64,000 nt of DNA from Blastocatellia bacterium AA13 (GTDB taxonomy: Bacteria > Acidobacteriota > Blastocatellia > UBA7656). The notes below the pieces were generated by a model that ran no database searches, was not told the DNA's origin, and saw only the letters and a list, made by a program, of their open reading frames with translations. The stretch is taken from positions 21,215 through 85,214 of the forward strand of contig QHVH01000023.1 in NCBI GenBank assembly GCA_003222245.1, in the 5' to 3' direction. Below, piece after piece: positions 11,787-36,076 of the stretch; within the stretch, counting starts at the first letter, position 1, and each line of letters opens with the position of its first letter. The position numbers were made by a program, and so were the translations under genes.

Positions 11787-12794
11787 ATGAAAAGAACCGG
11801 TATCCTTATTCTACTATGCGTCGCGATCAGCCTGCCCGCGTGTTCCAGCCTGAGGCATCACGACGAAGACGGAGGGCGCAAGCGCGTCGGCATTGTGTTC
11901 GACATAGGCGGAAAGGACGACAAATCGTTTAACGCCGCTGCGTGGGTCGGCGTGCAGCGGGCGGAAAAAGAGCTTCCGATCAAGCTGCGCAATGTCGAGC
12001 CGGGCGATCCTACCTCCATCGAGCCCTCGATGCGGGCCTTCGCCGAACGCGGCTATGATCTGATCATCGGCGTCGGCTTTGCTCAAGCTCCGATCATGGA
12101 GCAGGTGTCGCACGACTATCCCAATCTGAACTTCGTAATCATCGACGGCTTGATCGACAATCCCAATGTCGCTTCGCTGATCTTCAAAGAACACGAAGGC
12201 TCGTTTCTAGTCGGTATGATCGCGGCCAAAACAACAAAGACCGGTAAGGTCGGATTTGTTGGAGGCATGGACATCCCCCTGATTCACAAGTTCGAGACCG
12301 GCTACGCCGAGGGCGCGCGATACGCGGACCCTTCGATTCAAGTATTCGAAAATTATGTCGGCGTTACCGATGCCGCATGGAACAACCCCGGAAAGGGAAA
12401 AGAGCTTGCGAAAGCTCAAATCGAACGAGGCGCCGACGTGATCTTCCAGGCGGCCGGCAACTCCGGACTCGGCGTTTTTGATGCGGTCGAGGAGACAAAT
12501 CATCTCGCAATCGGCGTCGACTCCAATCAGAACTGGGTTAAGCCCGGATTCATTCTGACGAGCATGATCAAACGAGTCGATGTAGCCGTGTTCAACACGG
12601 TGAAAGAGCTCATCGAAGGCCGCTTCAGCGGCGGCGTGCATCTCTACGGCCTGGAAAACGAAGGCGTCGCTTATGCGCTGGACGACTATAATCGAAGCCT
12701 CATATCACAGTCCGTCATTGATGAGGTGGATCGCGCCAAGAAAGAGATTATCGAAGGCCGGATCAAAGTGACGGACGCAATGGCAGCGAAGTAG
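11787..12794 (+). CDS. BMP-family (PnrA/Med-like) ABC-transporter substrate-binding lipoprotein, probably nucleoside-binding
   Basis: Lipobox LPAC followed by SS; BMP fold motifs (VGIVFDIGGKDDKSFNAAAW...GVDSNQNW). Fits a nucleoside-salvage context next to deoA. Confidence 0.8.
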   Translation: MKRTGILILLCVAISLPACSSLRHHDEDGGRKRVGIVFDIGGKDDKSFNAAAWVGVQRAEKELPIKLRNVEPGDPTSIEPSMRAFAERGYDLIIGVGFAQAPIMEQVSHDYPNLNFVIIDGLIDNPNVASLIFKEHEGSFLVGMIAAKTTKTGKVGFVGGMDIPLIHKFETGYAEGARYADPSIQVFENYVGVTDAAWNNPGKGKELAKAQIERGADVIFQAAGNSGLGVFDAVEETNHLAIGVDSNQNWVKPGFILTSMIKRVDVAVFNTVKELIEGRFSGGVHLYGLENEGVAYALDDYNRSLISQSVIDEVDRAKKEIIEGRIKVTDAMAAK

Positions 12795-12835
12795 CGGATA
12801 GAGAAGATTCTTGACTCTCTTTATACGAACATGCG

Positions 12836-13627
12836 TCAATCTCTCTCATCCTTGAACTCCGCTGAAAAGTAACGGCTCGGCGTAGTCCCAAGAATCTTCC
12901 GAAACATCGCGATGAATGCGCTTGTGCTGGTATAGCCCGCCTCCAGAGCCGCACTGGTAACCGACTCGCCGCCGCCCAGCAGTTTTAATGCATGAATAAT
13001 GCGGAGCCGCTGGCGCCACTGATTGAAGGGCATTCCGGTCTCAGACCTGAATAGCCTCTCGAGAGTCCTTTTGCTCGCACCCACCTGCCGCGCGATCTCC
13101 GACAGAGGCGCCGGCATACTGGGATCTTCTTTCAACCATGCGGCTATTTTCCGAGCTCGTATGTCTCGAGGAATCGGCAACTGCATCGGAACCGTCTTCA
13201 CGAGTTCGAGTTGATCCAGAATCACATCGATCAATCGTGATTGCGTGGGAATCTTGCAGTCGAGAACCGCAAGGTCGGTCGCATGCAGGATAAGCTCGCG
13301 AAGCAGCGGCGGCACGTTGACCGTGCTGCAATCCCTCGGCAGCGCCTTCGACAAACCCGAAACGAAGAAAAGCGAACGCGCCGCGACGTGTCCGGACATC
13401 TCCTCTTCGTGCTCGACTCCGGACGGCACCCACACGGCGCGGTGCGGAGGCACAACCCACACGCCTTTGCCGGTATGGACCGTCATCACGCCCTGCGCGG
13501 CGTACGTGAGTTGATCCCAATCGTGCTTGTGCGGTCCGCTTTTATGACCGTTTAGAAACGTCACCCCGTAGGTGCGCACGAGCACGCTTCCATCGGGTCC
13601 GAATCGCTTTTTCTCGATGTGTCGCAT
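12836..13627 (-). CDS. AraC-family transcriptional regulator with N-terminal cupin domain
   Basis: True start is MRHIEKKRFGPDG at 13627. The track ORF extends upstream but overlaps the divergent glyoxalase gene. Cupin segment (HKHDWDQLTYAAQGVMTVHT) and C-terminal AraC HTH (LSEIARQVGASKRTLERLFR...SAFIAMFRKILGTTPSRY). Confidence 0.75.
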   Translation of the reverse strand: MRHIEKKRFGPDGSVLVRTYGVTFLNGHKSGPHKHDWDQLTYAAQGVMTVHTGKGVWVVPPHRAVWVPSGVEHEEEMSGHVAARSLFFVSGLSKALPRDCSTVNVPPLLRELILHATDLAVLDCKIPTQSRLIDVILDQLELVKTVPMQLPIPRDIRARKIAAWLKEDPSMPAPLSEIARQVGASKRTLERLFRSETGMPFNQWRQRLRIIHALKLLGGGESVTSAALEAGYTSTSAFIAMFRKILGTTPSRYFSAEFKDERD

Positions 13628-13729
13628 TCTCGATATTTGTTGGCAATATACAGCAAGACAACGCGAGCTCAAACCGTTATTCTGCTGACAGCTAAACGCA
13701 GCAAACAAATCTTGGTAAAGGGGGAAACG

Positions 13730-14110
13730 ATGGGAAATGTTGCGCATTTCGCGATCAACGCCGACGATCTGGAGCGGGCGCGTAAGTTCTACGGCAAGGT
13801 TTTTGGATGGCAGTTTGAGGCCTGGGGGCCGCCCGGCTTCTATCAGATCAAGGCTGGAGACAACCAGCGGCCCAACCCTATGGGTGCGCTTCAAGGGCGA
13901 CGGGAGCTGATTGCCGGTCAGCGAACCAATTGCTACGAATGCTCGATCGCCGTCGATTCTATAGACGATACCGTTGCGGCTGTCGAAGCTCAGGGCGGCA
14001 AGATCGTTATGCCCAAAGTCATCATCGCGGGCGTCGGTACTCTGATTTTCTTTCAAGACACGGAAGGCAATATTGCTGGAGCAATGCAGTACGACCAGAA
14101 TATCCGCTGA
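13730..14110 (+). CDS. VOC/glyoxalase-family protein
   Basis: MGNVAHFAINADDLERARKFYGKVFGWQFE...FFQDTEGNI; RBS AAGGGGGAAACG ahead of the ATG. Divergent from the AraC regulator. Confidence 0.7.
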   Translation: MGNVAHFAINADDLERARKFYGKVFGWQFEAWGPPGFYQIKAGDNQRPNPMGALQGRRELIAGQRTNCYECSIAVDSIDDTVAAVEAQGGKIVMPKVIIAGVGTLIFFQDTEGNIAGAMQYDQNIR

Positions 14111-14163: not shown

Positions 14164-14484
14164 ATGAAAACAGTATCAGTGTGCGTGTGCTTCATAGTGC
14201 TGGCCTGCTCGATTGCGGCACGAACCGAACTAACCCAAAGACGAAACAGCCCTACCGGCGTCATGGTTGTCGTCGCGTACAAGCCGCATCAGGGTAAGGA
14301 ACAGGAGCTCCTTCAACTCACGAGGGAACACCTTCCGATTCTTCGATCTCAAGGGCTTGCGACCGACAGGCCCTCATACACAATGAGAGCCGGTGACGGA
14401 ACTATAGTCGAGGTATTCGAGTGGAAATCGAAGCAGGCGATTGAGTCCGCGCACACAAATCCCGCGGTGGCCGCGTTATGCTGA
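14164..14484 (+). CDS. Secreted ABM (antibiotic-biosynthesis-monooxygenase fold) domain protein
   Basis: Signal peptide MKTVSVCVCFIVLACSIAA; ABM-like core VMVVVAYKPHQGKEQELLQLTREH...IVEVFEWKSKQAIESAHTNP. Confidence 0.5.
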   Translation: MKTVSVCVCFIVLACSIAARTELTQRRNSPTGVMVVVAYKPHQGKEQELLQLTREHLPILRSQGLATDRPSYTMRAGDGTIVEVFEWKSKQAIESAHTNPAVAALC

Positions 14485-14734
14485 AGCATGTGAGTTCACA
14501 CCGCTGTCGAAGGTCCCGGAGTGCAGTAATCTTTTCGCGGAGTTCGAGCCGATTGACCTGACGGCTCGATAACGATCGATTCGTTTCAATTATGACAAGA
14601 GTCTGAAAGCATTGTACGGGCGGGCCTCGGCGTCCGCCCCTTTTCGCGCTTGATATTTTCTAAGAGAGCATCACCAGTACGCTGGCATAGGACTGGGACT
14701 TACCCGGATCTCTTCAAGAAGAATTATCGAGTCG

Positions 14735-14753
14735 CTCTCACATTGCGTAGCAC
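14735..14753 (+). repeat. 19-bp perfect direct repeat, copy 1 (CTCTCACATTGCGTAGCAC); left boundary of the low-GC islet
   Basis: Identical 19-mer recurs at 16862-16880, and the flanks show extra partial identity. GC content drops between the two copies. Confidence 0.8.
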
Positions 14754-14829
14754 TCTATTCCTGCGTTGCTCCTAATTTTCTAGTTTTCCTCGAAAAGGAT
14801 GCATAATCGCCGAGCCATTGGCGAACAAT

Positions 14830-14873
14830 GCAGAGACGGACTGTCCGTGGCCATGGCTCCAGTTCGTCTCTGC
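14830..14873 (+). promoter_or_regulatory. Inverted repeat in 5' leader of islet ORF: GCAGAGACG-N26-CGTCTCTGC
   Basis: Perfect 9-bp arms at 14830-14838 and 14865-14873; the spacer contains CCATGG. Lies 26 nt upstream of the ATG at 14899. Confidence 0.4.
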
Positions 14874-14898
14874 CACTCCTACCTGATACGAGGAAAGC

Positions 14899-15267
14899 AT
14901 GTCCCTTATGGGCGACGGTCGCGAGTATGCTATCTGGCTTGATCTGTTGATGCCAGCCCTTCAGGAAGAATCAGTCAAAGCCGAACAAACCGCGAGGCTC
15001 TTTCATTCTCTGCTCGTGGAGATCGAAAACAATCCACAAGGCTCGCTGCATGCTATAGAGTGTCTTGAAACCGCTCTAGCGGTGGCGTTCTCATTCACTC
15101 CGATATATCCGACAAGTCACATCCTATTTCAGGCTTCGCTTGATGAAGACCTCCTGGCTGGTCTGGATTCAACGGAGCGATTGATGGAAGCCATGAGGCG
15201 AGTGAAAGCAGAGCTGAAACGGGACTCAAGATCGCAACCAAAGACAAGTCGTAGACGAAAGGGCTAG
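14899..15267 (+). CDS. Hypothetical acidic helical protein (islet cargo)
   Basis: 122 aa with no recognisable motif; RBS GAGGAAAG upstream. Lies inside the low-GC islet and converges on the SecB-like gene. Confidence 0.4.
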   Translation: MSLMGDGREYAIWLDLLMPALQEESVKAEQTARLFHSLLVEIENNPQGSLHAIECLETALAVAFSFTPIYPTSHILFQASLDEDLLAGLDSTERLMEAMRRVKAELKRDSRSQPKTSRRRKG

Positions 15268-15303
15268 AGAAAGAAATAAGGTAGTAATTGCTCTAAAATA
15301 TTT

Positions 15304-15762
15304 TCACGCGCCTAGAGCTTTCCTTGTGGGTCTCTTCGCTATTCCCTTCTTATCTAACGGCAGGAATGTCACTAGAGGCAAAATGCTAATAGGGTACGGA
15401 CTTCGGGAGGCGAGAGTTATTATCGTCTCTCGCGCAGCCGAATATAGCACTGCCGGACCGTTGGTTTTTGCCAATAACGCAACCTTCTCCAAAGGATAGC
15501 GAGGATCTACTTCAAAGAAACCGACATATGTAACCACAAATGAGTAAGGGGGCTTTGACCGTGATGGCTGTTTAGTACGCACCGTGACCTCACAACGCCA
15601 CTTGTAGGGGTCTCTCGCATCCTGCTCAGCTTTGTGTGTTATGTCTAGGTTGACTCTCCCGGAATCAACAGATTTCTCCGGTAAATTCTCCAAAGGAGAT
15701 ATCGACTCAAACCGTGCCTCCTTTAGATAATATCCATCAAGCTGCAAAGGCGAGGGTAGCAT
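15304..15762 (-). CDS. SecB-like chaperone (putative TAC-system chaperone)
   Basis: 152 aa. Aligns along its whole length with E. coli SecB from memory: YYLKEARFESISP~YTKDISFEAPN, WRCEVTVRT~YEVVLRVTV, and VLYSAARETIITLASRSPYPISILPLVTF~[29 protein letters not shown]. Confidence 0.8.
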   Translation of the reverse strand: MLPSPLQLDGYYLKEARFESISPLENLPEKSVDSGRVNLDITHKAEQDARDPYKWRCEVTVRTKQPSRSKPPYSFVVTYVGFFEVDPRYPLEKVALLAKTNGPAVLYSAARETIITLASRSPYPISILPLVTFLPLDKKGIAKRPTRKALGA

Positions 15763-16450
15763 TATCAGCCTCCGTACCTAGCGTTAGCGGAATTTCATTT
15801 AATGAGTCAATTGCCAATGGTACCTCGTACTCAGAAAGCCCTCGGTCGAGAACTTCACAACCTTCTAGGGTCTCGCATAAGGTTTCTGTTTCAACCAGAT
15901 CGAGTATGAGTCGCTCGAACAGAACTGCAATTTCAGAACTGTGCGCCGATTTGCTAGCAATCGTGCATTTTGCGCTTGACATATTCGCAGCTCGCGTATT
16001 CACAAAAAGTACTGGGCTCGGCGGACGGCCACCTTTTTTACCGTTCTCCCTAGCTGCCAAGGTCTTTCTATCCGATATGACACGTCCGCCCTGTTGCCCT
16101 AATCGAGCCATCCATCTGCGTGTTCCAAAGATACCTTCGACCAACTCAGGAACACCGAGATCGATATCTAGGGTATTCCATCGCAATGCCGTACCATCTC
16201 CAACGACAGCGACATCAGCAATGTCTTCCGTACTAGCCCCTACCAGTCCCTCGACACAATCGACGGGAAAGATAAAAGTCTTTTCATCTTCAAGATTAAG
16301 TACTATACGCCCGGAGTCACGATCGTATTCGACGCTTCGCGCGTGCGGTTGTGTTAGCCTCGCTTTTTCCCCTCGCTTTGTAGCTTCTGCGAGCTGACGA
16401 TCAAGTTCATCCTCATCGTATTCCCATTTACCGTCTTTTAACTTAGCCAT
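15737..16450 (-). CDS. DUF2442-domain protein with ~40-aa N-terminal and ~100-aa C-terminal extensions (putative antitoxin with chaperone-addiction tail)
   Basis: Core RSVEYDRDSGRIVLNLEDEKTFIFPVDCVEGL...GTALRWNTLDIDLGVPELVEGIFG matches the DUF2442 pattern, followed by a basic KTLAARENGKKGGRPP segment and a ~100-aa tail. The ATG (16448-16450) overlaps the DUF4160 stop by 8 nt (ATGGCTAAGTAA), and the 3' end overlaps the SecB-like start by 26 nt. Confidence 0.7.
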   Translation of the reverse strand: MAKLKDGKWEYDEDELDRQLAEATKRGEKARLTQPHARSVEYDRDSGRIVLNLEDEKTFIFPVDCVEGLVGASTEDIADVAVVGDGTALRWNTLDIDLGVPELVEGIFGTRRWMARLGQQGGRVISDRKTLAARENGKKGGRPPSPVLFVNTRAANMSSAKCTIASKSAHSSEIAVLFERLILDLVETETLCETLEGCEVLDRGLSEYEVPLAIDSLNEIPLTLGTEADNATLAFAA

Positions 16451-16682
16451 GAATTTCCCTCCACTTCCTGAGCAGATAGCTCTGCTTCTGAGCAACTATC
16501 GCAAGTGCTCTTTTTGCATCTCTTGTGCTCATTTTATTCTCCCGAAAGGAAGGAGCAGTACGACTATCGCCGAGATTGATTATTACTACTCTTCCGGCCT
16601 TAAATACGTGTACGTGTGAGGGATTATGATCGTTAGAATAGATACGAAATGCAAAGCCATCTTGCCTCCATACCTCTGCCAT
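16443..16682 (-). CDS. DUF4160-domain protein (putative toxin partner of DUF2442)
   Basis: 79 aa; FRIYSNDHNPSHVHVFKAG...RALAIVAQKQSYLLRKWREIHG matches the DUF4160 signature (YxNDHxPPHxH). It is the first gene of the three-gene minus-strand operon. Confidence 0.8.
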   Translation of the reverse strand: MAEVWRQDGFAFRIYSNDHNPSHVHVFKAGRVVIINLGDSRTAPSFRENKMSTRDAKRALAIVAQKQSYLLRKWREIHG

Positions 16683-16711
16683 TCAAGGTGTCCCTTATTG
16701 ACACCAAGCCA

Positions 16712-16740
16712 ATACTAACCTAACCAGCTTGGGTTGTCTA
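16712..16740 (-). promoter_or_regulatory. Putative sigma70-type promoter of the DUF4160-DUF2442-SecB operon (TAGACA-17 nt-TAGTAT)
   Basis: Minus-strand reading: TAGACA (16740-16735), a 17-nt spacer, TAGTAT (16717-16712), then 29 nt to the ATG at 16682. Confidence 0.35.
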
Positions 16741-16861
16741 CTAGGTAATGGTATAGATCAGCGATCTGTTACTCTTTTGACTTGGCCATGCCAAAACTAT
16801 AGCACGATGGTTTTCAGGTAGGAAAAGTTTCATTCGTGACAGCAACGCAGATTAGAGCACT

Positions 16862-16880
16862 CTCTCACATTGCGTAGCAC
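16862..16880 (+). repeat. 19-bp perfect direct repeat, copy 2 (CTCTCACATTGCGTAGCAC); right boundary of the low-GC islet. Overlaps a putative -35 (TTGCGT) with TATACT 19 nt downstream
   Basis: Identical to 14735-14753. Followed by TTGCGT...TATACT and then the small zinc-ribbon ORF and hemB. Confidence 0.8.
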
Positions 16881-16912
16881 GGCGCCTTCTTTGTTATACT
16901 CGCAATCTCGAA

Positions 16913-17101
16913 ATGGCAATTTGCACCGTCTGTTTGCAGTCCGATAAGACGGCCCGGATGACCAAATGCGCCGGGTGCTTCAAGCCCATCTGCGAGGACT
17001 GCGGGCTCAGGCGGTACGGAAAATCATTTTGCAATCAGAACTGCTCTGCTGTCTTCTTCTTCGGCGCCGACCCTGACGAAGAAGAAAAGAAGCCCGCTTA
17101 G
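16913..17101 (+). CDS. Small Cys-rich zinc-ribbon protein
   Basis: 62 aa with four Cys pairs (CTVC...CAGC...CEDC...CNQNC). Ends 13 nt before hemB. Confidence 0.5.
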
Positions 17102-17114
17102 AAGGATCCGTGCA

Positions 17115-18080
17115 ATGGAACTTATACAACGCCCGCGTAGACTCCGCCGCAACGAGCAGCTTCGCACGCTCGTTCGAGAAACCGCTCTCACGCCATCCAA
17201 TTTCGTCTACCCGCTATTTGTATGTGAAGGCGAAGGGGTCAAACGGGAGATCGCTTCAATGCCGGGCTGCTACAACATGTCGATCGACAACCTTGTCGAG
17301 GAGGTCGGTTTCGCGCGGAACGAAGGGATAAGCTCGGTCATCCTGTTTGGCGTTCCGGACGAAAAGGACGCGGCCGGATCGGGAGCTTACGCCGAAGACG
17401 GCATAGTCCAAAGAGCGACTCGCTCCCTGAAACGTCATTTCAACGATATTCTCGTGATCGCCGACAATTGTCTTTGCGAATACACGGATCACGGCCACTG
17501 CGGCGTGATCGACGACGGCGAGGTGCTGAACGATCCGACGCTCGATCTTCTTGCTCGAACGGCCGTCGCCCAAGCTCAGGCGGGCGCGGACATTATCGCG
17601 CCTTCGAACATGATGGATGGGTTTGTGGCGGCGATCCGTTCCGCTCTGGATCGACAGGGTTACGAAGGCGTGCCTGTGATGTCCTATGCAGTCAAGTACG
17701 CATCCGGCTTCTATGGTCCTTTTCGGGAAGCTGCTCAATCGACTCCGCGGTTTGGGGATCGTAGCGGATATCAGATGGATCCGGCCAACGTGCGTGAAGC
17801 TCTCCGCGAGGCCGCGCTCGACGTGGAGCAGGGAGCGGACATTCTAATGGTGAAGCCGGCGCTTCCCTATCTCGATATAATTCGCGCGGTCAGGGAACGG
17901 TTCGATTTACCCGTGGCTGCGTATCAGGTGTCCGGCGAGTACGCGATGATCAAGGCGGCGGGCCGAATGGGATGGATCGACGAAACGCGAGTTATGATCG
18001 AGTCGCTTACTTCAATCAAGAGGGCGGGCGCCGAGATCATACTGACCTACTTTGCGCGGGACATGGCTCGGGCGCTGTGA
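17115..18080 (+). CDS. hemB: Porphobilinogen synthase (delta-aminolevulinic acid dehydratase)
   Basis: 321 aa: [30 protein letters not shown] and the active-site region [17 protein letters not shown]. Confidence 0.9.
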
Positions 18081-34264: not shown

Positions 34265-36076
34265 TCAAAAAGTGGTACTCGGAGCCGATGAGGGAATGTC
34301 GCGGTCGTCGAGAATCCGGTGGGCCAGGTCAGAGAACATCTCGTATTCGGGCAAAGAGAGCCTCACATGGGCGACCGCCAGTACCTCGTCGAAATTCCAG
34401 GCTTCTCGTTCAAAACCCTTCTTAAAAAGCCTCCTTAGCTCTTCTAGCGGTTCTACAGCGTCGTCGCCTTTTAGCCGCGAAAGAATAGCTGAATAGAGAG
34501 CGATTTCAGCGGCGAGTTGATTGGTCTGGCCTTTGTTTAACGCCCTCGCCCTTGTCGCCATTTCAGCAGCCTCATCCAGGCGGCCTCGAGCCACGAGAAA
34601 GCCGGTGTAGTTACCGGCGCCAATCGCGTAGTTCGGATCAAGCTCAAGCGCCCTGCGATAGAGCTTCTCGGCTTCATCGTAGTTCTTGCGAACATGGAGC
34701 ATGAAAACAGCGAAGTTGCCCGTGACAATCGCCCTGTTCGGATCAAGCTCAAGCGCCTTGCGATAAAGCCTCTCGGCTTCATCGTGGTTCTTGCGAAACT
34801 GGGTCATGAAATTGGCGAAGTTGCCCGTGTTGCGCGCGTGGTTCGGATCAAGCTCAAGCGCCCTGCGATAGAGCTTCTCGGCTTCCTCGTGGTTCTTGCG
34901 AACATAGGTCATGAAATTGGCGAAGGCACCCGTCAACTCCGCGCTTTCAAGGAACTGCCGTAGGCCGGCGCGATAAATCTCCTCCTTCTCTTCCGGATCG
35001 GATTCCGATTCGGCTTTCAGATACCAGGCCCACCAGCTCTCTTCCGCGGCAAAGCGATCAGCGGCAGCCTTCGCGGCCTCGCGCACCGGTTTTCTTGCTT
35101 CCTCGGCTTCCTCAGTGTCCGCCTTCTTGCTGAGTTTGGCGTTGAGCTCCTCGAATGATTTTTGATACTCAGCGCTTCGCTTCTTATGAGCGCGCTCCAG
35201 TTCAGGCAGAGCGGAGGGGAGCTTGAGCTTCTCTTGAAGCTGAAGCATCAATTCGTCGAATCCAGCGATAGGCACAAGTCTTCCTCGATGCCGTTCCACC
35301 ACTTCGTGAATCGCCTGGTCAACGGTTTCGCCGTCAAGATGACACCAGAAAATCCCGCCGTCGATCGCCTCCGCTTCCTTCAGGTAGCCCATGAGACTGC
35401 CGTCGTTGCCTCCATACCCGATGACGATCGGCGCGAAGCGGCTGAATATCCTTTTCAGCGCGGCTTTCCATTCCTCGGAAAGGTTCGCGATTTCATCGGG
35501 ATTGCTGAACGGCTGAAGCAAGAGGTCGCGATGAATTTTCGCGACCAACGGCCGCCGCGGGTTAGGCCGAATGTAGCCGGTCAATGACTCGTGACCACAT
35601 ACAAGAGGAAAGGTGCGAGTGTAGATAGACAGCGCGTCGGCCACAAGATTATCGAAGTTAGTGGTCACAGCCACGCTGTGCGCCTTGAACGCCATTATTT
35701 GTGCAAGCACGGAATACCCGAAACTCGGCTCCGCGTGTTCCATAGCGCTCTCAAGGAACGCGTAGCCATGTTCTTTGAAGTGGCGAAAGCGTCGCTGATA
35801 GATATAGGGATAGAAACTCGCCGCCTTTTCGTACTCAAAACCCGGAATGTCCAGATTCTCAGCCGTCGCCCATTTTTCAATCGGCTGTTTGGAGAAATCC
35901 TCCTGGAGATGGATATCCTCGAGCCACCGTTTCACAAGCGCGGCGCCTGTGAGGATGCCCGATTGAACCGACGCGCCCGAACCGAGCACCCAGCAGAAGG
36001 GCCGATCCTTCATTTGCTCGTGACGCTGAAGGAATTCCTCGAGGAACCCCTCGACTGTCATCTTTTTCGCCGTCAT
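34265..36076 (-). CDS. SIR2-like (SIR2_2) NADase-domain protein fused to C-terminal TPR repeats
   Basis: 603 aa. N-terminal Rossmann FCWVLGSGASVQSGI, conserved TTNFDNL and KIHRD (putative catalytic His), as in ThsA/DSR-type SIR2 domains. The C-terminus holds three near-identical 34/35-aa TPR units (EAEKLYRRALELDPNHARNTGNFANFMT...). Confidence 0.7.
   Translation of the reverse strand: MTAKKMTVEGFLEEFLQRHEQMKDRPFCWVLGSGASVQSGILTGAALVKRWLEDIHLQEDFSKQPIEKWATAENLDIPGFEYEKAASFYPYIYQRRFRHFKEHGYAFLESAMEHAEPSFGYSVLAQIMAFKAHSVAVTTNFDNLVADALSIYTRTFPLVCGHESLTGYIRPNPRRPLVAKIHRDLLLQPFSNPDEIANLSEEWKAALKRIFSRFAPIVIGYGGNDGSLMGYLKEAEAIDGGIFWCHLDGETVDQAIHEVVERHRGRLVPIAGFDELMLQLQEKLKLPSALPELERAHKKRSAEYQKSFEELNAKLSKKADTEEAEEARKPVREAAKAAADRFAAEESWWAWYLKAESESDPEEKEEIYRAGLRQFLESAELTGAFANFMTYVRKNHEEAEKLYRRALELDPNHARNTGNFANFMTQFRKNHDEAERLYRKALELDPNRAIVTGNFAVFMLHVRKNYDEAEKLYRRALELDPNYAIGAGNYTGFLVARGRLDEAAEMATRARALNKGQTNQLAAEIALYSAILSRLKGDDAVEPLEELRRLFKKGFEREAWNFDEVLAVAHVRLSLPEYEMFSDLAHRILDDRDIPSSAPSTTF
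34629..34935 (-). repeat. Three tandem ~104-bp near-identical coding repeats (TPR units) inside the SIR2-TPR gene
   Basis: Plus-strand units begin at ~34631, ~34736 and ~34840 (GTTCGGATCAAGCTCAAGCGCCCTGCGATAGAGCTTCTCGGCTTC...) with roughly 85-90% nucleotide identity. Confidence 0.7.

Follow-up and report, generated by a model that had tools for sequence, protein, structure and literature searches.

Several kinds of small chromosomal insert are known that carry accessory genes and do not encode the enzymes for their own movement. Cis-mobilizable elements (CIMEs) are bounded by direct repeats, contain accessory cargo of foreign base composition, and have neither recombinase nor transfer genes. 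The pseudo-SCC elements (SCC, staphylococcal cassette chromosome) of staphylococci are cassettes located at orfX/rlmH, with direct repeats of 15–18 bp and imperfect inverted repeats at their extremities, and without the ccr serine recombinase genes. Mobile insertion cassettes (MICs) and non-autonomous transposons resembling miniature inverted-repeat transposable elements (MITEs) have inverted-repeat ends around passenger genes, no transposase, and a direct duplication that is usually 2–14 bp long. Here we describe a locus that has features of all three. It lies in a stretch of 64,000 nucleotides from Blastocatellia bacterium AA13, an uncultured acidobacterium from soil (Acidobacteriota; contig QHVH01000023.1), referred to below as the window, and consists of a four-gene, AT-rich islet bounded by two identical 19-bp direct repeats, immediately upstream of the operon that contains hemB. 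With moderate confidence, we read this islet as the scar of an old insertion, in which the two 19-bp copies are the duplicated junction left by an AT-rich cassette.

The comparison with CIMEs is the closest. Like them, the islet is a small chromosomal insert with direct-repeat bounds, accessory cargo and foreign composition, and it has no integrase or transfer genes: the Pfam assignments of its four genes are SecB, DUF2442, DUF4160 and none. It differs from CIMEs in having no remnant of genes from an integrative and conjugative element (ICE) or an integrative and mobilizable element (IME). No cognate integrase or related element is known to use its 19-mer, and recognition of the repeat by an integrase is putative; JGI metagenome and viral contigs contain no related element with the same attachment (att) site. 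Its target is an intergenic promoter region, as opposed to the 3′ end of a gene or a tRNA. Membership of the CIME class is therefore partial, in that the direct repeats, the composition and the lack of a recombinase fit, and descent from an ICE or IME is unsupported. The islet resembles pseudo-SCC elements in the length of its direct repeats, in the imperfect inverted repeats that lie immediately inside these, in being a cassette without a recombinase, and in that the adjacent essential gene stays functional after insertion. It differs from them in phylum and in sequence, no ccr-like gene was seen in the window, and there is no tandem array of cassettes. With MICs and MITE-like elements it shares inverted-repeat ends, passenger genes without a transposase, and a bracketing direct duplication. 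Here the differences are the length of the duplication (19 bp), a 5-nt offset at the right end, the single copy, and the fact that no matching insertion sequence (IS) element is known.

The repeat, CTCTCACATTGCGTAGCAC, occurs as two exact copies, both on the plus strand, at positions 14735–14753 (copy 1) and 16862–16880 (copy 2). These are candidates for the attL and attR cores, respectively, of a site-specific recombination event, or for the two halves of a target duplication. A repeat scan of the whole window shows that this pair is the longest exact dispersed repeat in the 64 kb, and a search allowing up to three mismatches found no third copy there. The next-longest exact repeats are three 15-nt direct pairs and one 17-nt inverted pair, which is about the level expected by chance for 64 kb; by our own estimate, about 0.01 exact 19-nt direct pairs are expected per window of this size. 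The exact 19-mer was found in only two JGI metagenome contigs, both of which represent the same occupied locus.

Copy 1 is intergenic, lying past the ABM gene and its terminator-like hairpin, and is invariant in all of the conspecific contigs that cover it (8/8). Copy 2 overlaps the −35 position of the promoter of the native operon, which consists of hemB and a short preceding gene that we call Zn62. Eight sequences, of which the window is one, have CT as the first two bases of copy 2; in four conspecific contigs, where copy 2 reads ACCTCACATTGCGTAGCAC, these bases are AC. The two copies are at least 17/19 identical in every strain (19/19 in the window). Because the start of copy 2 is polymorphic, the invariant repeat is 17 bp long, with no visible constraint on its 5′ end. 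This 17-mer gave 0 matches in viral contigs.

The edges of the identity are abrupt. When the flanks of the two copies were aligned in direct orientation, the observed scores were reached by 313 of 500 shuffles on the upstream side and by 310 of 500 on the downstream side, and similarity beyond the copies is thus absent. Such abrupt edges fit an att core or a target duplication; a shared promoter or a segmental duplication would not be expected to end in this way. Because similarity is confined to the 19-mer, we also rejected a duplication of a larger part of the hemB promoter region.

Just inside the direct repeats there is a pair of subterminal inverted repeats, which had not been noticed in the preliminary description of this DNA. 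The left one, TCTATTCCTGCGTTGCT (14754–14770, plus strand), directly abuts copy 1, while the right one, AGCAACGCAGATTAGA (16841–16856, minus strand), lies 5 nt (GCACT) inside copy 2. In inverted orientation they match at 15 of 16 aligned positions, with one 1-nt gap. The score of this alignment, 22, is reached by about 0.1% of random pairs of 40-mers from the window and by 0.13% of shuffles (p ~0.001). The outer flanks, and alignments in direct orientation, gave background scores only and no counterpart repeat. The 9-mer TGCGTWGCW occurs four times in the 64 kb, and all four occurrences are at the two junctions, two at each.

With DR for direct repeat and IR for inverted repeat, the layout of the junctions is [DR][IR->] ... 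[<-IR][DR]. This is the signature left either by site-specific integration, where the attachment site of the incoming element (attP) has inverted arms around its core, or by transposition, where terminal inverted repeats (TIRs) are enclosed by a target-site duplication (TSD). The abutment of the left inverted repeat on copy 1 fits either of these, while a simple TIR and TSD arrangement is harder to reconcile with the 5-nt offset on the right. Patterns made from the inverted repeats gave 43 and 4 matches in viral contigs, approximately what is expected by chance for a collection of that size, and further copies of the inverted-repeat ends were found neither in the window nor in the loci fetched for comparison.

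The base composition changes at the same positions. The 2,108 bp between the two copies (14754–16861) have a GC content of 47.9%, as against 55.3% for the whole window. The GC content at third codon positions (GC3) is 0.51 for hyp122, 0.48 for the SecB-like gene, 0.41 for the DUF2442 gene and 0.40 for the DUF4160 gene. Taking the 38 long genes of the window as background (0.652 ± 0.037), the enclosed genes are 3.8–6.8 standard deviations below it. The adjoining genes outside the repeats have native-like values (VOC 0.64, ABM 0.60–0.62, Zn62 0.73, hemB 0.65). With GC3 at 0.40–0.51 inside and 0.60–0.73 just outside, the compositional break coincides with the repeats; the GC boundary is sharper on the right than on the left. 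The preliminary description had reported the identical 19-mer at both positions and an intervening DNA that is AT-richer than its flanks, holding only a three-gene module resembling a toxin–antitoxin–chaperone (TAC) operon plus one hypothetical open reading frame (ORF), and it had suggested a check of GC content and codon usage. The exact search, the windowed GC and GC3 analysis just described and a Pfam search of the cargo, which identified the DUF4160/DUF2442/SecB trio, agree with these statements.

The cargo is mosaic: its accessory units are found apart from one another at other loci, where they adjoin transposases and defence genes. Three of the genes form an operon on the minus strand. 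They encode a DhiT-like DUF4160 toxin (16443–16682; Pfam DUF4160, E = 7e-13), a DhiA-like DUF2442 antitoxin with a C-terminal extension of about 130 residues (15737–16495; Pfam DUF2442 at residues 53–123 of 252), and, as the third gene, a SecB-like chaperone (15304–15762; Pfam SecB, E = 5e-8, above the gathering score). The true start of the antitoxin is probably the ATG at 16450, giving a protein of 237 residues, and this shorter product is the one called by both JGI and NCBI. By these Pfam assignments, a toxin, an extended antitoxin and a SecB-like chaperone are encoded in one operon with overlapping genes, which is the composition of a TAC module. In described TAC systems (PMC5105189, PMC6377645), as here, an overlapping SecB-like gene follows an antitoxin that has a long C-terminal extension. 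Those systems use HigBA, MqsRA, HicAB or Cmd toxins, whereas the operon in the window uses DUF4160. DUF4160 and DUF2442 together make up the experimentally validated DhiTA pair of Dickeya, which is autoregulated (PMC8198452), and the order of genes in dhiTA, with the DUF4160 toxin first and DUF2442 after it, is the order found in the window. The match of the window protein to the NCBIfam model toxin_DhiT (E = 8e-7) is under the curated cut-off. No paper mentioning DUF4160 together with SecB was found in the literature searched. The operon seems to represent a TAC variant, based on the DhiTA family, that has not been described, and it is a more noteworthy item than the repeat-bounded scar in which it sits.

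The trio of DUF4160, long DUF2442 and SecB recurs at L089:7760–9305, at L097:545–2113 and in the contig of P0002 (L numbers denote loci and contigs fetched for comparison), and in L089 its neighbours are a HigB module and two DDE transposases. There are 156 plasmids that carry a two-gene DUF4160/DUF2442 pair, and these pairs cover just the N-terminal 55–64% of the window antitoxin. Upstream of the toxin gene, positions 16701–16740 (minus strand) contain a promoter-like match, TAGACA-17 nt-TAGTAT, together with the dyad AACCCAAGC...GCTTGGTGT. The block GACAAACCCAAGC(G)GCTGGGTTAT precedes DUF4160 in the window and also in the otherwise unrelated loci L089 and L097, which argues that this dyad, rather than the 19-mer, would be the operator of the antitoxin.

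The fourth gene, hyp122 (14899–15267, plus strand), is an accessory gene encoding a small helical protein of 122 residues, with no match in Pfam, NCBIfam, PADLOC or PHROGs. AlphaFold generates an all-helical model of low confidence (predicted local distance difference test score, pLDDT, 59), which is too poor for a fold search. Only seven homologues are present in a database of 5.8 billion clusters, and none was found on plasmids. Among those of known context, none is beside the toxin–antitoxin (TA) trio, and DNA similarity is confined to the coding region: the homologue in L088 adjoins TerB and CHAT, and that in L090 adjoins HTH_17, SocA_Panacea, AIPR and an IS1595 transposase. Upstream of hyp122 there is a palindrome with 14-nt arms that are 93% complementary (14830–14873, plus strand; 25 nt 5′ of the start), which, judging from its sequence and position, may be a regulatory element of hyp122 itself or a hairpin in its 5′ untranslated region. 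In L090 a perfect palindrome with 13-nt arms (L090:4365–4408) occupies the equivalent place 5′ of the hyp122 homologue. In these two unrelated loci the palindromes of the hyp122 family have arms of 13–14 nt and spacers of 16–18 nt, and lie 25–37 nt before the start codon; their position is the same and their sequences are different.

The islet is present in every conspecific contig that extends across the locus (8/8, from independent assemblies). The islet-bearing conspecifics are L001, L002, L091, L092, L094, L095/L086 and L096/L087, and L005 covers all four islet genes. Divergence between strains is 0.3–0.7% in the islet and 0.4–1.4% in the flanks. Since every contig is occupied and the divergence equals that of the flanks, the islet was already present in the common ancestor of these strains and is vertically inherited. 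There are also signs of decay. Between the toxin gene and copy 2, a segment of 384 bp in L092, L095 and L096 takes the place of 12 nt of the window (16761–16772). This segment (in the region L095:4161–4640) contains a frameshifted small gene (MAKSKEPIRR...GGKARAKKLS...), for which no family matches were found, and a convergent ORF encoding an acidic product of 35 residues. What is left in the window is a remnant of the small gene, MAKSKE*, together with the point at which about 372 bp have been deleted (16761–16788, minus strand). The islet is old, fixed in the species and eroding. Two short conspecific contigs, L004 and L093, end about 30 nt from this indel (at about position 16731), and we attribute this to a break of the assembly at the polymorphism (16761–16772).

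Outside the species, loci anchored on hemB were compared from 185,579 species genomes. The nearest relatives have 78–81% amino acid identity in hemB and no synteny with the window on either side; Zn62-hemB and its extended −10 element are present in these genomes, and no islet gene lies within 10 kb. Clusters at 90% identity for hemB, Zn62 and ABM contain this species only, and all members are occupied; proteins identical to those encoded here are annotated in the metagenome-assembled genome named 'Blastocatellia bacterium AA13'. The corresponding cluster for Bmp adds one more distant relative, L145 (GCA_023265195.1), which has about 76–82% nucleotide identity and remains colinear over the stretch that runs from CheB to Bmp (L145:10001–11260 compared with window 11787–12840). 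Immediately beyond the stop codon of Bmp the two part, and L145 has genes for an ECF sigma factor and a Ser/Thr kinase in place of AraC-VOC-ABM. As colinearity with L145 ends at Bmp, the islet lies about 2 kb from a synteny breakpoint.

The DNA to the right of copy 2 belongs to the flank and not to the islet. Zn62 (16913–17101, plus strand) is a conserved Cys-rich ORF of 62 residues (CxxC...CxxC...CxxC) and is the first gene of the native operon, followed by hemB (17115–18080, plus strand). As identified using tblastn, Zn62 is directly 5′ of hemB in the nearest Blastocatellia (L006, L007 and L008) and in the more distant Acidobacteriota L013 and L034. It is unannotated and is mostly missed by gene callers, and a homology search with Zn62 returned only Zn62 itself. 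The extended −10 element of the operon, TGTTATACT (16892–16900, plus strand), is conserved as TGnTATACT 12–13 nt 5′ of the Zn62 start codon in L006, L007 and L008. A TTGCGT hexamer (16870–16875), part of copy 2, lies 19 nt 5′ of TATACT (16895–16900). These two hexamers had previously been suggested to form a promoter. The spacing is real and the −10 half is conserved in the three relatives, but the TTGCGT half has no support from conservation, as nothing upstream of the extended −10 is conserved in them. Insertion and regulation are compatible in one respect: since the target would have been promoter DNA, copy 2 probably contributes to the native promoter.

In L013 and L034 there is a divergent tRNA-Met (CAT) just 5′ of Zn62-hemB (L013:465–541 and L034:1437–1513), a tRNA being the classical target of genomic islands. 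No tRNA is found upstream of Zn62-hemB in the window or in the closer relatives, and the junctions show no detectable remnant of one. Several other candidate origins of the junctions were tried and rejected. An att site derived from a tRNA is not indicated, there being no tRNA in the window and no Rfam match at E ≤ 1. The resemblance of CAGATTAGAGCAC to a tRNA D-arm, seen by eye, is not significant, and nor is the comparison of the junction with the tRNA-Met of L013 and L034, for which 19–27 of 300 shuffles reach the observed score. As an integron gene cassette, the islet has junctions that by eye do not fit the RYYYAAC and GTTRRRY cores, no integrase nearby, and genes on both strands. An Xer/dif site was rejected by eye, its core consensus being absent.

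We can now set out how the insertion would have come about. A small, AT-rich, horizontally acquired cassette would have inserted into intergenic DNA 5′ of the Zn62-hemB operon, in an ancestor of this Blastocatellia species (the 'Blastocatellia bacterium AA13' lineage). The expected empty site is ...ATTATCGAGTCG-CTCTCACATTGCGTAGCAC-GGCGCCTTCTTTG..., and its 19 bp would have been duplicated on insertion, either as the attL/attR core or as a long TSD, with the right copy ending 11 bp before the extended −10 of the operon. The inverted repeats, of 16–17 nt, would be the ends of the cassette and are putative binding sites of a recombinase or transposase. A circular form of the cassette would read AGCAACGCAGATTAGA-GCACT-[19-mer]-TCTATTCCTGCGTTGCT, with ...CAGATTAGAGCACT-CTCTCACATTGCGTAGCAC-TCTATTCCTGCG... 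as the expected junction of the circle. Because target sequence on both sides leaves native −35 DNA beside the operon, we propose that expression of hemB was not disrupted. The cassette would be non-autonomous or decayed, of the CIME or pseudo-SCC type, since it encodes no recombinase, and it would later have become fixed in the species and been inherited vertically while eroding. The enzyme responsible would be a site-specific recombinase or a transposase, and both the 19-bp length of the repeat and the fit to an attP with arms favour site-specific recombination. Our verdict is that the islet is most likely an ordinary fossil cassette of the CIME type, and as such an ordinary genomic scar.

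The preliminary description had already put forward the idea of an integrated mini-island whose attachment or target site is duplicated in the repeats. It is supported in part: the compositional break, the sharp bounds of the repeat, the inverted repeats, the cargo and the absence of the islet from the Zn62-hemB locus of the nearest other genomes favour it, but an empty site and a recombinase are both missing. These are among a number of observations that count against an insertion scar. No unoccupied site with a single 19-mer was found, the spanning conspecific contigs all being occupied, and no circular junction was found. There is no integrase, transposase or remnant of either in the islet or within about 7–10 kb of it, according to a precomputed Pfam table (±10 kb) and a reading of the translations. 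Neither the ends nor the 19-mer turned up again, beyond chance, in JGI metagenome or viral contigs, and the loci with homologous cargo, L088, L089, L090 and L097, have neither the 19-mer nor the inverted repeat nor any flanking direct repeats. The right inverted repeat, offset by 5 nt from copy 2, is not that of a textbook TIR and TSD structure, and 19 bp is long for a target duplication. Finally, as divergence between strains is alike inside and outside the islet, there is no sign of current mobility. It is a long shot that the islet is still mobilisable, with an attP-like site of about 57 bp (the 19-bp core and its inverted arms of 16–17 nt) being used by a trans-acting Acidobacteriota recombinase that shuttles defence and TA cargo, here an undescribed TAC of the DhiT/DhiA type, to promoter-proximal sites.

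If the 19-mer, or the TGCGTWGCW motif within the junctions, were instead an operator or upstream promoter element, a single protein could co-regulate hyp122 and Zn62-hemB, and possibly also the leftward small gene and the TA operon. Both copies are indeed 5′ of genes on the plus strand, and copy 2 overlaps the −35 position of a promoter with a conserved extended −10; the motif is found at the junctions and nowhere else in the window, and the inverted repeats are oriented alike relative to the two inward-facing end genes. The geometry of the two copies is nevertheless unlike. Copy 1 lies 146 nt from its start codon and copy 2 lies 33 nt from its own, with 145 and 32 nt, respectively, between repeat and ATG. 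The end of copy 2 is separated from TATACT by 14 nt, whereas the corresponding DNA beyond copy 1 contains no −10 element, and the sequences that follow the two copies are not similar. In L006–L008 the orthologous Zn62-hemB promoters lack the 19-mer, which, as read from the sequence, has no dyad symmetry. In addition, the first two bases of copy 2 vary within the species and the region shows no special conservation, and a conserved palindromic operator belonging to the TA operon itself lies about 120 nt away, just as hyp122 has its own palindrome. The shared promoter or operator that had been suggested as the alternative to a mini-island is thus largely not borne out, because of the unlike geometry, the lack of conservation in orthologues, the lack of a dyad and the separate operator of the TA operon, and we regard shared regulation as unlikely.

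Non-autonomous transposition would make the inverted repeats the TIRs of a MIC- or MITE-like element moved in trans, and the 19 bp an unusually long TSD. It accounts well for the layout of the junctions, with the left inverted repeat exactly abutting copy 1 and with the two ends related by terminal inverted repeats of the quality described above (15/16 with a 1-nt gap, p ~0.001), and elsewhere homologous cargo is found beside DDE and IS1595 transposases. The gap of 5 nt on the right means that the duplication abuts the ends on one side only, 19 bp is beyond the usual 2–14 bp, searches of the window, of the viral contigs and of the loci fetched for comparison gave no second copy of the ends beyond chance, and no transposase is nearby. 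We therefore give transposition only a small chance. Smaller still is the chance that the repeats are a coincidence, or the product of untargeted repair, recombination or gene conversion, so that the 19-mers merely bracket accessory genes acquired piecemeal. Exact repeats of 15–17 nt do arise by chance in the window, the units of the mosaic are unlinked elsewhere, which would allow stepwise acquisition, and the left GC boundary is the less sharp of the two. On the other hand, the expected number of exact 19-nt pairs, about 0.01, becomes far lower if both copies are required to be intergenic and to lie at the two compositional boundaries, and the inner flanks are exactly where an independent inverted repeat (p ~0.001) lies. 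Pure chance is made unlikely by this inverted repeat together with the location of the copies at the two compositional boundaries, and an insertion scar remains the reading that we prefer.

The annotation of the flanks given here differs slightly from that in the preliminary description, which named VOC and ABM genes on the left and hemB on the right. Those genes are present, but the gene adjoining copy 2 is Zn62 and not hemB, and the ABM gene is frameshifted here. The ABM-like gene (14263–14572) has an 11-nt deletion and a frameshift at about 14478–14484 in the window and in L002, giving a product of 73 residues, and is intact (106 residues) in L001, L091, L092 and L094. Further to the left, an AraC-family ORF of 406 residues (12836–14056, minus strand) is called in several assemblies, and overlaps the VOC/glyoxalase gene (13619–14110, plus strand). 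This call is probably the result of an over-extended start, because the Pfam domains begin at residue 166 and the JGI product has 263 residues. Elsewhere in the window, positions 34604–34933, within the ORF at 34265–36076 (minus strand), consist of three tandem 105-nt units of 82–83% identity, which encode TPR-like repeats (...YRRALELDPN...) of a 603-residue protein.

For the annotation of this genome, the repeats give the exact limits of horizontally acquired DNA beside an essential heme-biosynthesis operon, and the islet shows how the promoter of the hemB operon was preserved. The repeats also frame a DUF4160/DUF2442/SecB-like operon that is an apparent undescribed TAC variant, and they provide a candidate att-like site in the Acidobacteriota, a phylum whose mobile elements are poorly known. 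The islet is otherwise a routine example of the way in which small accessory modules enter a chromosome and then fossilise there.

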